DNA from: Candidatus Wallbacteria bacterium
Lineage (GTDB): Bacteria > Muiribacteriota > UBA6191 > JACPRK01
Direction: 5' to 3'
DNA length: 33,231 nt
NCBI GenBank assembly: GCA_016190005.1
Contig: JACPRK010000021.1
Coordinates: forward strand, 1-33,231
The notes below the pieces were generated by a model that saw only the letters and a program-made list of their open reading frames with translations, was not told the origin of the DNA and searched no databases. Position 1 is the first letter of the stretch. Every line of letters begins with the position of its first letter. Shown in pieces: positions 14,215 to 20,451 of the stretch. Position numbers and translations under genes: made by a program.

Positions 14215-15024
14215 TCATCGGAGGGTCGCGGCGGAGAGCACGACTCCCGTGCCTCCGATATTGAGCGAGTTTGCCGGGTGGTACGTCACTTGACCGACCG
14301 GCGCGCCCGCAGTGCCCGAATCGGCCGGCACCATCCAGTTGTCGAGCCAGTAGAGCCGGGCGCGCTCGGCGCGCGTCTGGACGTGGCGGGAAGCGACCGT
14401 CACGTACCCCGTGATGCGGGAGGCGTCCTTGTGGGCGAGCTCCAGGTAGAGGCAATCCGGAAGGCGCGCGGCGTCGTACCTAAGGACAGAGTCGGTCAGC
14501 TCCTCGAGCGTGCCGGTACTCTTGTCCCGGCTGTAGCAGGCGAGCCGGAAACCGCGCAGCCCGCCCCGGCAGTACTCGCGGCGCTCCAGGGCGGCCTGCG
14601 AGATCCCACCGGCCGTCACGTCGTGAATGGTGCGCACCAGCGTCTGCTCGCCGGCGGGCCCCTCGAGCCGGTAGACGAGCTGGCCGGCCACCGGTTGATT
14701 CGTTTCAGGAATCGAGTCGTGAATCTTGAAGAACCGGACTTCGGTGGTCAACGACGCGACCGTGGTGCGAAACAAGGAGATCTCGATCGGGGCGCCCGCG
14801 CCGGCGGCCACTTCGCGATCCAGCACCATCGCGCCCAGGTCGTCCCGCATCCGGACGAACACGAGGTTCAGATCGCGCATTGCGTGGACGGAGGCGTTCT
14901 CTCGTGTGCTCATGCGGCCGCTCTGGGTCCAGACGAAGATGGCCGCGCCGAAGAGCACCGCCAGGATGGCGGCGCCGATGAGCACCTCCAGCACCGAGTA
15001 ACCCGCCCGCCCCAGGCGCGTCAT
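14215..15024 (-). CDS. Minor pseudopilin, GspJ/PilW-like (prepilin-type N-terminal domain).
   Basis: The internal ATG at 15024 overlaps the upstream stop (TCAT 15021-15024). MTRLGRAG|YSVLEVLIGAAILAVLFGAAIFVW is a class III signal peptide with Glu+5. The following ...RENASVHAMRDLNLVFVRMRDDLGAMV resembles GspJ. 269 aa. The long N-terminal extension in the six-frame ORF is Gly/Ala/Arg-rich GC noise. Confidence 0.7.
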   Translation of the reverse strand: MTRLGRAGYSVLEVLIGAAILAVLFGAAIFVWTQSGRMSTRENASVHAMRDLNLVFVRMRDDLGAMVLDREVAAGAGAPIEISLFRTTVASLTTEVRFFKIHDSIPETNQPVAGQLVYRLEGPAGEQTLVRTIHDVTAGGISQAALERREYCRGGLRGFRLACYSRDKSTGTLEELTDSVLRYDAARLPDCLYLELAHKDASRITGYVTVASRHVQTRAERARLYWLDNWMVPADSGTAGAPVGQVTYHPANSLNIGGTGVVLSAATLR

Positions 15025-15482
15025 GGGACCGGCAGGCGCAGGTACCGCGCCAGCCGCACCTCCCGCTGCTCCCCGCGTTCGATGAAGTGCACCCGCACGC
15101 GCAGCGCCCAGCCGGCCTGTCCCGGCGGCTGCGAAAGCGAGAAGGCCACCTCGTGGGCCTGCTCGGGTATCTCGCTCTGGAGGTAAAGCCGCTGCTTCGT
15201 AGCCTCGAGCGCCAGCAGATTGACCCAGTTGCCCGACGAGAGCGACACCGCTTGCTGCAGGAAGGCCGCGTCGGCGTGAACCAATCCGTCGGCCAGCTCG
15301 TTGGCCAGGTTCGTAAACACGATCTCGTTGATTGACGCGGCGTTCGCCCTGCCGCTGAGCAGCACCAGGTCGATCACCGGCGCCACCAGCACAGCCAGGA
15401 TCGCCACGGCCAGGAGCACCTCCGTGAGGGTCACACCGCACGTTCGTCTATCGCGCCGCACACCTCCATCGTAGCAGCGCAC
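15021..15482 (-). CDS. Minor pseudopilin, GspI/PilV-like, about 145-153 aa; the exact start is uncertain (GTG at 15482 or GTG at 15461).
   Basis: ...RRDRRTCG|VTLTEVLLAVAILAVLVAPV is a textbook prepilin cleavage/methylation motif (G-1, Glu+5). The ORF begins with GTG. An alternative GTG at 15461 would give a typical 8-aa leader but has a GGAGG too close to it. Confidence 0.65.
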   Translation of the reverse strand: MRCYDGGVRRDRRTCGVTLTEVLLAVAILAVLVAPVIDLVLLSGRANAASINEIVFTNLANELADGLVHADAAFLQQAVSLSSGNWVNLLALEATKQRLYLQSEIPEQAHEVAFSLSQPPGQAGWALRVRVHFIERGEQREVRLARYLRLPVP

Positions 15483-17743: not shown

Positions 17744-20451
17744 GCCTGCCGCGCCCAGGCGGCCGCGCCGCGTTCGCCATCGCCCTGGTGATCGGCGTCT
17801 TCCTGGTGGCGTGCGTCGTCGGGCTGGGGTTGCTGCAGTTCTCGCGGGAAAACCGCTTCGCCATCCGCCGCTTCTACCTGACCGTGCAAGCCGACGTCCT
17901 CCTGGATGGGGCGATGGCCGAAGCCGCGGCCTGGCTCCAGAGCGGCTTCGCCGGCCCAGGCGCCATCCCCGAGCTGGCACAGTTCCTGGACGACCCGGCA
18001 GCCGACGCCTCCAGGCTCTCGGCGCTTTCGCTCACTCCCCCGCTCCCCGTATCGACGGCACTGGCCGAGGAGCTCGAGCTCACTCTGGAGGCCTCGGTCG
18101 ACTTCGAGAAGGTCCAGCCCTTCCACGTGCCCGACGCCGGCGGGCTCGACTGGGCCACGCAGGCGCGAGTGGTTCCCGATCCAAAGGAGTGCCAGGGCTG
18201 GGCGGTCTTCCGGATTCGCGTCCGACACGAGAGCTTCAGTCGGGAGTCGAGCGTCAAGCAAGCCTTCAAGCTCGTTCACCCGCTGCCGGACGCGGTGACG
18301 AAGTTCACTCTCTTCGTCCGCGACCAGGACCCCGCCGCCGCGGGCAAGGGCAGTCCGCGTCATCTGAACAACCTCTACCTCGACGCCACCAGCTACCTGT
18401 GCCGAGGACTGGTGGCGGAGTCCGCTCCTGCGCGGCCACTAACGCTGATCCATACCGGCGCCGACCTGGACACCGACGGCGCCCCTGTCGGTGCCGGCGG
18501 CGAGCTGCCGGCAGGCGGCGCGCGCCAGTTCGACGCTTCCGACGTGCGAGCCGGCTTCCTCGACAAGGGCTGGGTCTTTCTCGGCACTCCGGCCCCCGAG
18601 GGCACCGTGCTCAACCTGACGTCGGGGCAGATCTACGACTATCTGGGCGGAAAGGTGAACCTGTCGCTCTACCCGCCGGAGCTTGCCCGACGCTACGCCG
18701 GTGAGCGCTTCCACACTGCCGACGTCGCGGAGCTGATGGCGACGACCTTCACAGGCGCCTCGCCCTTGATGAAGTCAGCGACGTTCGACAATTCCGGTCC
18801 CCAGTTCCCCGCGGCCATCCCCGCCAGTCCGATGCCCGGCATCGCCTCGCTCAGGTTCAAGCTCCAGTTCTTCAACTTCTGCTCCGTCTCTCGAGACATG
18901 GAGCACGGCCTGCCTGGACTGGAAGACCTCCGGCACACGTTCTCCAACTACTACCGTGCGGCGGCGGCAGACGTCGGCTACTCGACGTCGGACTACCGAA
19001 CGCATCATCCAGCTCTGCTGCATCTTTTCGGTTCAGAGCAGCTCGACGCCGGCCGATACCGGGACAGTCGCTCGCCCACGATGGTGCTGGGCCCGGTCCG
19101 GCGCAAGTCGCTCGCGATCGGCTCGGTCCATCAGGAGAGCGACTACGAGCGCGGCACGGCCACGGGCGCGCCGGAGCCCTTCACCCACCCGCCCCAGGCC
19201 GCGCGCCAGAAGACGACCTATCTTCCCTGGTTCGACATCGACGCAGGCGGCCAGAACCGCTCCACCACGCCCGAATTCACGGCGGTCTGGAACCAGGTCG
19301 ACGAGGCCGACCCTTCAGCCGGAGTGCCGCCCGCGCTGCCGGGCCTCTTCACGCGTCGCTCCTGGTACCTGGCAGAGGCGTTCCTGCCGGCCGGCCCGCA
19401 CCAGATCTACTACAAGAACTTCGCGATGAGCCGGTTCTTCGAGGAACCGTACCTCTACTCGGCCGACACGATCCTCGCCAACAACGTGACGCAGCCGCCG
19501 CGCTCCAGCCTCTACAGCAAGCGCGTCTTCGCCGATGCCGCGGCGCGAGCAGCGCTGGTGACGCTGGGCCGGGCCGGCGCCGCTGCCGAGCCCGACGAAG
19601 CCTTCTTCTACGACACCAACGGCCCCGTCTACACGGGCGGCTCGCTCGAACTGCGCGGCGCCCGGCTCACGGACGCCGCCGACCCCGATTCCGCGTGGCG
19701 GGCCGATGCGCCCAGGGCGCTCTTCAGGGGCAACCTGAGGGCGCTCTCGCTCTTCTCGAGCGGTTTTCAGCTCGGCAGCCAGGCCGGTTCGCCGACCGGC
19801 TTCGACCTGCGCCGCAAGGCAACCCACCTCTTTGCCACGATCGCGGACTTCGAACGCACGATGCTCGACGAGAGCGATCCGGCAGTCGTGCGGCTGCGGC
19901 TGGACGGCGAGCTGGTCTACGTCGCGGAGGCCGCGCCGGCGGTCCTCGGCGCGACGGGGCGCCCGCTGGTGGTGGACGGGCCGGGGACCGTCGTCTTCCA
20001 GGGCCCGGTGACGCTGGAATCCGACGTGCGGATGGCCGCGGAGCCGCCGGCGGTGCCGCGCGGGCGCGTGACCGTCCCGCCATTTGCCGTGGTGAGCGTC
20101 ACAGGCGCCATCGTCGTGAAGGGTGCCGAGATCCACGCCTCGCTCGTGGCCCTGGACCCGCAGGCGGGCACGATCCGTCGCGGGCCCGGAGGCGGGCGGC
20201 TGCGCATCGTCGGCTCGGTCGCCGTCGACCACCTGGAGCTGGGCGACGGTCTGCTCCGTGAATCGACTCCTCCTGGCAACCGGTTCGGGACCAACACGTT
20301 CGAGGTCTCACCGGAGAACCTCTTCGCGCGCGGCGACGGCGACTGGGAACCGCTGGAGCTCGTCTACAACGACAGCCTGGAGCCGACGCTCTGGGAGCGC
20401 TACCGCAAGCACTACCGCTTCAAGCTGGGCCGCAGCGTGGCGTTCAAGTGA
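17740..20451 (+). CDS. Giant (903 aa) membrane-anchored paralogue of the 795-aa GspK/PilX-like protein. Putative oversized pseudopilus tip subunit, translationally coupled to the upstream C45-like gene.
   Basis: TTG start at 17740, the only start upstream of the TM helix. N-terminus ...GGRAAFAIALVIGVFLVACVVGLGLLQFS has no Glu+5. Shares the VxxKFxLxxxD and (A/E)RPLTL..G blocks with the 795-aa protein. No overlap with other frames' real genes. Confidence 0.55.
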   Translation: MSLPRPGGRAAFAIALVIGVFLVACVVGLGLLQFSRENRFAIRRFYLTVQADVLLDGAMAEAAAWLQSGFAGPGAIPELAQFLDDPAADASRLSALSLTPPLPVSTALAEELELTLEASVDFEKVQPFHVPDAGGLDWATQARVVPDPKECQGWAVFRIRVRHESFSRESSVKQAFKLVHPLPDAVTKFTLFVRDQDPAAAGKGSPRHLNNLYLDATSYLCRGLVAESAPARPLTLIHTGADLDTDGAPVGAGGELPAGGARQFDASDVRAGFLDKGWVFLGTPAPEGTVLNLTSGQIYDYLGGKVNLSLYPPELARRYAGERFHTADVAELMATTFTGASPLMKSATFDNSGPQFPAAIPASPMPGIASLRFKLQFFNFCSVSRDMEHGLPGLEDLRHTFSNYYRAAAADVGYSTSDYRTHHPALLHLFGSEQLDAGRYRDSRSPTMVLGPVRRKSLAIGSVHQESDYERGTATGAPEPFTHPPQAARQKTTYLPWFDIDAGGQNRSTTPEFTAVWNQVDEADPSAGVPPALPGLFTRRSWYLAEAFLPAGPHQIYYKNFAMSRFFEEPYLYSADTILANNVTQPPRSSLYSKRVFADAAARAALVTLGRAGAAAEPDEAFFYDTNGPVYTGGSLELRGARLTDAADPDSAWRADAPRALFRGNLRALSLFSSGFQLGSQAGSPTGFDLRRKATHLFATIADFERTMLDESDPAVVRLRLDGELVYVAEAAPAVLGATGRPLVVDGPGTVVFQGPVTLESDVRMAAEPPAVPRGRVTVPPFAVVSVTGAIVVKGAEIHASLVALDPQAGTIRRGPGGGRLRIVGSVAVDHLELGDGLLRESTPPGNRFGTNTFEVSPENLFARGDGDWEPLELVYNDSLEPTLWERYRKHYRFKLGRSVAFK

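Follow-up and report, generated by a model that had tools for sequence, protein, structure and literature searches.

Cassette B, a group of four genes at positions 14215-20451 of contig JACPRK010000021.1 from Candidatus Wallbacteria bacterium, probably encodes an alternative tip (priming) module of a type IV filament together with a recruited enzyme related to peptidase C45. The filament would be a type IV pilus, a competence pilus or the pseudopilus of a type II secretion system (T2SS). Tip or priming complexes set the role of such filaments in adhesion, DNA uptake or secretion. The window analysed here is the whole contig of 33,231 bp, which has a GC content of 68% and belongs to a metagenome-assembled genome (MAG) of an uncultivated groundwater bacterium. 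An earlier note on this DNA, made from the letters alone, had described cassette B as a rearranged paralogous copy of a second gene group in the window, cassette A, and had called three of its products I-like, J-like and K-like. That interpretation was partly supported.

Spurious long open reading frames (ORFs) are abundant at this GC content, and real genes were picked by frame analysis of GC at third codon positions (GC3). In cassette B the GC3 frame plot backed exactly four frames, coding for the J-like, I-like, C45-like and K-like proteins:

14215..15024, minus strand: J-like putative minor (pseudo)pilin of cassette B, 269 aa (ORF and GC3)
15021..15482, minus strand: I-like putative minor (pseudo)pilin of cassette B, 153 aa (ORF and GC3)
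15483..15547, no strand: short divergent intergenic region from the I-like start to the C45-like start (read from the sequence)
15548..17743, plus strand: predicted secreted C45-like protein of Ntn-hydrolase (N-terminal nucleophile hydrolase) type, 731 aa
17740..20451, plus strand: K-like predicted giant tip pilin of cassette B, 903 aa (NCBI locus tag HYY25_01350)

The stop codon of the I-like gene and the start of the J-like gene share ATGA, and the C45-like stop and K-like start share TTGA. An alternative C45-like start, the ATG at 15494, would lengthen the product to 749 aa and leave an intergenic region of only 11 nt; the 731-aa form, which carries the signal peptide, was favoured by all homologues. 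A promoter and terminator scan of 13900-20700 was uninformative overall, and no sigma-70-like site was found in 15483-15547.

A sister strain, Wallbacteria MAG GCA_016213845.1, provided a close comparison: its contig JACQZN010000062 (L008; related loci are cited by such numbers below) is collinear with window positions 9233-30451 at 95.7% nucleotide identity. Ratios of nonsynonymous to synonymous substitution (dN/dS) were calculated by the Nei-Gojobori method for the window against L008. Values for cassette B were 0.135 for the J-like, 0.079 for the I-like, 0.093 for the C45-like and 0.096 for the K-like gene, a range similar to that of neighbouring genes for G6PD (0.059), a major vault protein (MVP) homologue (0.071) and glutamine synthetase (0.097). 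Because the ratios match those of housekeeping-like neighbours, all four cassette-B genes appear to be expressed and under purifying selection. Together with the GC3 signal and the layout shared with the more distant locus L009, the low dN/dS confirmed, at the level of sequence, that the four ORFs are real genes.

The earlier note had read the divergence between the two K-like proteins as a mark of diversifying, surface-exposed domains. In this one pairwise comparison, at 95.7% identity, dN/dS of about 0.1 gave no sign of diversifying selection, and the K-like family alignment was evenly conserved, with strong invariant motifs and no hypervariable domain. The proposal of diversifying selection was not supported by these results.

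Cassette A, the counterpart of cassette B, is a run of K-like, I-like and J-like genes in that order on the minus strand, spanning 4454-8279:

5892..8279, minus strand: K-like predicted giant tip pilin of cassette A, a distant paralogue, 795 aa
5287..5895, minus strand: I-like putative minor pilin of cassette A, 202 aa
4454..5323, minus strand: J-like putative minor pilin of cassette A, 289 aa (N_methyl 5.9e-7)

Direct BLASTP comparison of the 903-aa and 795-aa proteins was not significant. By word-based search the 903-aa protein had a single relative (58% identity) and the 795-aa protein five (94-30%); hhalign of these shallow families gave 91% probability (E 1e-6, 213 columns), and the hidden Markov model of the 795-aa family scored only 13.7 bits against the 903-aa protein. 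In an exhaustive HMMER scan of 1.84 billion representatives, the 903-family profile matched 42 clusters, among them bridging clusters matched by the 795-family profile too (P0049 at 71.7 bits, P0048 at 47.5 and P0022 at 40.5). With the bridging sequences added, hhalign aligned the families at 100% probability (E 8e-63) over about 700 columns, spanning residues 7-890 of the 903-aa and 10-741 of the 795-aa protein. The bridging sequences were chosen by the 903-family profile, a caveat on this alignment; each of them independently matches both profiles. On this profile evidence the 903-aa and 795-aa proteins are distant paralogues over nearly their full length, and the predicted relation past the N-terminal helix was borne out, as was the view of cassette B as a rearranged paralogue of cassette A with an inverted I-J pair.

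Two pairs of short blocks had been cited as shared by the K-like proteins. The first, VLSKFALISPD/AVTKFTLFVRD, corresponds to a superfamily motif, LPxVxSKFTLF, and the second was out of register; hhalign instead pairs ARPLTLIHTGAD with SAPVVVFNAPED, and ERPLTLRLASGG with EGTVLNLTSGQ. The other superfamily motifs are PLVLIHxPxD, RGWVFLG and D-R-R-S-P-T-L-V-L-G-P-V. The 903-aa protein consists, in order, of an N-terminal hydrophobic helix, a pilin domain (about 8-195), a conserved middle region with the motifs PLxLIHxxxD, RGWVFLG and DxRSPTxVLGPV, and a C-terminal beta-solenoid (about 690-840). Members of the family share the N-terminal pattern R-R-G-[FVML]-x-L ahead of a hydrophobic stretch and, like GspK, have no Glu at +5; the window protein reads GGRAAFAIALVIGVFLV there.

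Neither the 903-aa nor the 795-aa protein matched a Pfam or NCBIfam model at E<0.1, which places them in no curated family. Among 32 K-family relatives, none matched Pfam T2SSK, PilX_N or NCBIfam gspK, and a single member matched DUF7305 (E 0.0019). Sequence searches of the Protein Data Bank (PDB) with both K-like profiles returned chance-level matches only. All named members of the family belong to Candidatus Riflebacteria or Wallbacteria and are annotated as 'hypothetical protein'.

The fold was more informative. An AlphaFold2 (AF2) model of the 903-aa protein, built from a 17-sequence alignment, had a mean pLDDT (predicted local distance difference test) of 67 and a pTM (predicted template modelling score) of 0.72, and was confident over residues of about 10-195 and 690-840. 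The first region combines a 64-residue N-terminal helix with a beta-sheet, as expected of a pilin domain, and the second is a beta-solenoid; in the model, a pilin fold (long alpha1 against an antiparallel sheet) is joined by a further large domain. In fold comparison the best structural match was ComZ, with ComZ and GspK the closest, followed by XcpX (6.5), GspI (6.3), PilX (6.2) and many other pilins. The label 'K-like', proposed in the earlier note, is justified by the modelled structure, which points to a giant tip pilin resembling ComZ and GspK.

The two small proteins had been predicted to carry prepilin-type N-termini, and both do. Each has a class III signal peptide, with a short, basic leader, Gly at -1, a hydrophobic residue at +1, Glu at +5 and a hydrophobic helix of about 20 residues (G|VTLTEVLLAVAILAVL and G|YSVLEVLIGAAILAVL). 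The leader of the J-like protein reads MTRLGRAG|YSVLEVL and that of the I-like protein ...RRTCG|VTLTEVLL, each with Glu at +5. The I-like protein matched Pfam N_methyl at 1.4e-5 (24.9 bits, over the cutoff of 21.2) and the J-like protein at E 0.0053 (16.7 bits, under the cutoff). Weak N-terminal matches to NCBIfam models were to TIGR02523 PilV (9e-5) and gspI (0.013) for the I-like protein and to TIGR01711 gspJ (E 0.004) for the J-like protein. These features mark the 153-aa and 269-aa products as prepilin-type proteins. In the cassette-A J-like protein (4454-5323, minus strand), Ala replaces Gly at -1 of the prepilin cleavage motif (NRA|FTLVE).

Family profiles were also compared with the five E. 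coli K-12 pseudopilins GspG to GspK, taken from NC_000913.3, and the best of the five was recorded. The K family profiles ranked GspK first, the B-type I profile ranked GspI first (14.5 bits) and the J profiles ranked GspJ first (21.2 bits over residues 4-83, and 12.9 bits); the I and J matches were confined to the first 60-80 residues. The labels 'I' and 'J' seem reasonable on these rankings. Paralogy of the I/J pairs of the two cassettes, as earlier proposed, held for the N-terminal helix, where direct pairwise similarity ends. By hhalign the I-like protein of cassette B aligned with the cassette-A I-like family at 96% over residues 16-78 only, and the J-like protein with the cassette-A J-like family at 90% over the N-terminal helix only. 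BLASTP between the cassettes found no similarity past the N-terminal helix for either pair, and the J pair was not significant.

The 731-aa protein upstream of the K-like gene was, as the earlier note had suggested, C45-like. It matched NF040521 (C45_proenzyme) at 2e-16; the 60.2 bits fall short of the 85-bit cutoff, and the match takes in positions 1-182 of the 313 in the profile. All five family members gave the same result. A bona fide comparator, a Vibrio 'C45 family peptidase' found by tblastn against plasmids, scores 117 bits to NF040521; hhalign aligned the C45-like family with it at 95% (E 3.8e-8, 191 columns) and, at the processing site and nucleophile, paired AGF-GC|TAVASWG with HSFSGC|SSLATWG. 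Within AGF[G/A]C|T every family member keeps Cys162, as expected of a conserved nucleophile. The proposed Gly-Cys processing site stood for the Cys and not for the Gly: the residue before Cys162 is Gly in the window protein and Ala in its orthologues.

From its N-terminus the protein comprises a signal peptide, the half resembling C45, about 450 further residues, an Ala/Pro linker and a conserved tail. The C-terminal 450 residues had no detectable relatives, and PDB sequence searches with the C45-like protein gave chance-level matches only. Behind the Ala/Pro-rich linker, all family members end in an invariant GTGGASNPT[L/M]GQP (window 17650-17740). Because no transmembrane segment follows it, the tail is not a sortase- or PEP-CTERM-type signal. 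The 731-aa protein is a predicted Ntn hydrolase, C45-like over its N-terminal half.

Other genomes carry cassettes of this kind too. L002 (753, 174 and 318 aa) and L004 (769, 209 and 317 aa) repeat the K, I, J order of cassette A, and the trio is kept in Wallbacteria and relatives, often in tandem (L002, L004, L010, L011 and L012). Locus L010, from Wallbacteria GWC2_49_35, holds two tandem K-I-J cassettes with an extracytoplasmic function (ECF) sigma factor and a FecR-type gene between them; the cassettes of L011 are also tandem, and in L012 a FecR gene lies between K and I. L002 lies in the same MAG as L008, which brings the count for this strain, nearly identical to the window organism, to at least three cassettes; the window organism probably reaches that number too. 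From these gene maps and a genome scan, K-I-J cassettes are judged multi-copy per genome, in agreement with the earlier note. At L003 (4161-7841) a K-like gene and the following pseudopilin gene or genes are called as one 1226-aa product with an internal N_methyl motif, which may be either a fusion or a frameshift or assembly artefact.

ECF sigma-70 and FecR-type anti-sigma genes stand beside or between cassettes at L010 8549-9876 and 14121-15311 and at L012 11507-12292. No ECF/FecR pair adjoins the cassettes of the window. The neighbours in L010 and L012 hint that each cassette may be switched on separately.

The arrangement of cassette B was itself conserved. Its full layout, with the J-like and I-like genes divergent from C45 and K, is kept in L009 at identities of 55% for J, 51% for I, 47-61% for C45 and 58% for K, and the flanks of L009, which carry an FHA-GAF-SpoIIE protein to one side and a tRNA synthetase to the other, are unrelated to the window. 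The divergent I-like gene with C45 and K was found in L005, and C45 followed by K in L001, L006, L007 and L015. Orthologues of the cassette-B I-like protein in L005 and L009 are 51-53% identical and their genes divergent from the C45-like gene. The C45-K pair was present in every lineage with context (window/L007/L008; L001/L005/L006/L009; L015). A K-frame start overlaps the C45 stop in four of four sequenced lineages, as TTGA in the window and GTGA in L015, L001 and L009, so that the overlap reported earlier is real and its NTGA form recurs in three other lineages. A general linkage of C45 proteins with pilins was considered and rejected: 21 distant C45 loci from metagenomes had no K-, I- or J-like neighbours. 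Because those homologues have no such neighbours, linkage to K is specific to this C45 subfamily.

From these results we propose the following organisation. The I-like and J-like proteins would be small prepilin-type subunits which, with the giant K-like protein, may use their N-terminal helices to assemble the initial, capping complex of the filament, in the manner of GspI, GspJ and GspK. The K-like subunit would sit at the apex because its extension of about 700 residues cannot fit inside the filament; this extension would include a beta-solenoid of ice-binding-protein type, as in Thermus ComZ. The filament machine itself would be encoded elsewhere in the genome. Several K-I-J modules exist (A, B and a third in the closely related strain), and therefore one machine could take different tips; interchangeability of the modules is our inference. 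Cassette B may have arisen by inversion of I-J relative to K and recruitment of a Sec-secreted C45-like gene directly upstream of K. The C45 stop and K start overlap, and therefore the enzyme would be made together with this particular tip, as its periplasmic or extracellular partner or as its cargo.

Several observations weigh against this proposal. An assembly ATPase, platform protein, secretin, prepilin peptidase and major pilin were all absent from the related loci examined and from the window, where a gene and Pfam survey found no pilus or T2SS machinery genes. In sequence profiles the globular domains of the I-like and J-like proteins had no detectable likeness to known pseudopilins or to their cassette-A counterparts. 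For the K-like protein, the cleavage site in the N-terminus (GGRAAFAIAL) is less canonical than in most family members, residues 200-690 of the AF2 model are of low to moderate confidence, and a Foldseek search of the model against the PDB returned nothing significant. The C45 match lies below the NCBI family cutoff and covers half of the profile rather than the whole domain, and the AF2 model of that protein, built from 4 sequences, had a mean pLDDT of 37. In L001, L005 and L009 the gene callers start the K-like gene about 90 nt downstream, in L001 and L009 at an ATG chosen in place of the overlapping start, and this placement leaves translational coupling of C45 and K no more than possible.

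Some of these absences would suit a cassette unconnected with filaments, in which K is a membrane-anchored surface adhesin or enzyme with a signal anchor and the small proteins are unrelated prepilin-like membrane proteins. The missing machinery genes, the unrecognisable I/J globular domains and the position of the most conserved K motifs (DxRSPTxVLGPV and RGWVFLG) outside the pilin domain, where they might form an active or binding site, are consistent with such a cassette. However, K is paired with exactly two prepilin-type genes in every cassette and its N-terminus is GspK-like throughout the family, and we consider a non-filament function very unlikely.

The place of the hydrolase is less certain. 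It could be co-regulated cargo or a neighbour with no structural role: an exoenzyme that a T2SS-like machine secretes, or a periplasmic enzyme whose gene adjoins those of a dedicated pseudopilus tip. Its Sec signal peptide and C45 hydrolase domain fit this, as does the preference of the I-, J- and K-like profiles for T2SS GspI, GspJ and GspK; in E. coli K-12 the chitinase gene chiA adjoins the gsp operon. Yet the best structural match of K is the competence-pilus pilin ComZ and not a T2SS component, T2SS core genes are absent nearby, and the stop/start overlap suggests a closer stoichiometric tie than cargo normally has. We regard a pure cargo role as unlikely without being far-fetched. Alternatively, the hydrolase could be a structural part of the tip, a Sec-exported non-pilin docked on the K/I/J complex, perhaps by its C-terminal tail, giving an enzyme-armed pilus; PilY1 in the fimU-pilVWXY1E clusters offers a positional analogy. 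Strict C45-K adjacency with a possible stop/start overlap in all lineages argues for this, together with the confinement of this C45 subfamily to the vicinity of K-like genes, not seen in distant C45 relatives, and the signal peptide and invariant GTGGASNPT[LM]GQP behind a flexible Ala/Pro linker. Against it, cassette A and most K-I-J cassettes do without such a partner, the AF2 model gave no usable fold for the C-terminal 450 aa, and physical interaction with K, I or J is purely hypothetical; a structural role is in our view improbable. Less probable again is the fuller picture of the hydrolase docked to K via its GTGGASNPT[LM]GQP tail as a PilY1 analogue, placing an amidohydrolase at the pilus apex, with the cassettes serving as exchangeable 'tool heads' for one machine. 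An alternative tip module that has gained a C45-like enzyme remains the preferred explanation of cassette B.

Between the cassettes lie genes for a MORN-repeat protein, two small HExxH proteins and the MVP homologue. The first is a secreted 548-aa MORN_2-repeat protein (8498-10144, minus strand), encoded immediately upstream of, and in the same orientation as, the cassette-A K-like gene; an 870-aa protein with bacterial Ig-like domains occupies the corresponding position in L002. The HExxH proteins (10100-10768 and 10765-11466, both plus strand) are tandem paralogues with signal-peptide-like N-termini and the motifs VHELSH and MHEFSH; they belong to no Pfam family and may be candidate secreted metallopeptidases. 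From about 2900 to 4450 the window had no ORF with a convincing GC3 coding signal or Pfam match.

The J-like gene is followed directly, on its own strand and after 88-200 nt, by the gene for the MVP homologue (11545-14127, minus strand; MVP_shoulder 4.5e-26, with Vault repeats), which could be co-transcribed with I-J. The earlier note had treated flanking of the MVP gene as a feature of the modules. This was rejected: MVP stands beside a cassette only in the near-identical L008, and in L009, the one more distant relative checked, the FHA-GAF-SpoIIE protein takes its place. Synonymous divergence from L008 jumps near 22100, from 0.03-0.08 in genes at 10100-22011 to 0.18-0.32 in genes at 22164-30087, which suggests a recent recombination or sweep over the region of MVP and cassette B.

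Wallbacteria and Riflebacteria are two barely studied candidate phyla, and literature mentioning Wallbacteria contained nothing on pili. They have their own unannotated family of giant ComZ/GspK-like predicted tip pilins in K-I-J cassettes. Should the enzyme travel on the tip or act together with it, this would be a novel means of arming a pilus; otherwise, the results still give names and a testable function to about 40 'hypothetical protein' clusters. The locus is also a clean model for the duplication and rearrangement of tip modules and for partner recruitment.

Among known systems, the K-like model shares the combination of pilin and beta-solenoid with ComZ, which with PilA2 belongs to the competence pilus of Thermus thermophilus and is its tip pilin (PDB 6QVI; PMC6561018). 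The authors of that structure matched its pilin domain to GspK and its solenoid to an ice-binding protein, and argued that only the pilus tip could hold such a subunit (PMC6561018). The K-like proteins differ in having no detectable sequence similarity to ComZ and in their size, 750-960 aa compared with about 550 aa, with a conserved middle of about 450 residues that carries family-specific motifs. Like GspI-GspJ-GspK (PDB 3CI0, 5VTM), the cassettes combine two small pseudopilins with Glu at +5 and a larger subunit without it, and their I, J and K profiles pick out GspI, GspJ and GspK among the E. coli GspG-K. In contrast to that system, the gene order is K-I-J, or J-I divergent from K, instead of I-J-K, and the cassettes lie outside any gsp operon; K-like proteins are 2.5-3 times larger than GspK, with a solenoid in place of the GspK alpha-domain, and matches to the NCBIfam gspI and gspJ models are far below cutoff and N-terminal only.

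The Verru_Chthon cassette (TIGR02596, TIGR02598, TIGR02599, TIGR02600) is likewise multi-copy and combines one giant with small prepilin-type proteins. Membership in it was rejected: the cassette-A I and J proteins match its proteins C and D weakly, at E 0.02-0.06 and over the N-terminal helix only, where cutoffs are 70-256 bits, while cassette B matched none of its models and the K-like proteins had no match to protein A. A literature search for the cassette by name found no papers. The C45-like protein resembles the autoproteolytic Ntn hydrolases of peptidase C45 (acyl-CoA:6-APA acyltransferase type) in its N-terminal 210 or so residues, which cover the propeptide and first catalytic part, and in an invariant Cys that falls, in the alignment to a bona fide member, on that member's Gly-Cys processing site and nucleophile. 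It differs in leaving the second half of the profile unmatched, in its roughly 450 extra C-terminal residues and conserved tail, and in the change of Gly at -1 to Ala in orthologues; for C45, genetic linkage with pilin genes is new.

Myxococcus xanthus has three minor-pilin/PilY1 clusters. In cyanobacteria, multiple minor-pilin sets forming two core priming complexes prime distinct filaments, and a beta-solenoid PilX has been described as a tip plug (bioRxiv 10.64898/2026.02.12.705559). The cassettes resemble these sets in that several paralogous tip or priming modules per genome would specialise the same kind of filament, and the K-like protein resembles the cyanobacterial PilX as a large beta-solenoid subunit proposed to plug the tip. 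They differ in having only three genes per cassette, from families specific to Wallbacteria and Riflebacteria for which there is no Pfam or NCBIfam model; a C45-like hydrolase occurs in none of the published minor-pilin sets. The kind of system is known, since multiple minor-pilin sets and beta-solenoid tips are established, and the cassettes are a lineage-specific variant of it. What is new here is the protein families, their restriction among named members to Wallbacteria and Riflebacteria, the compact three-gene format and the hydrolase partner.

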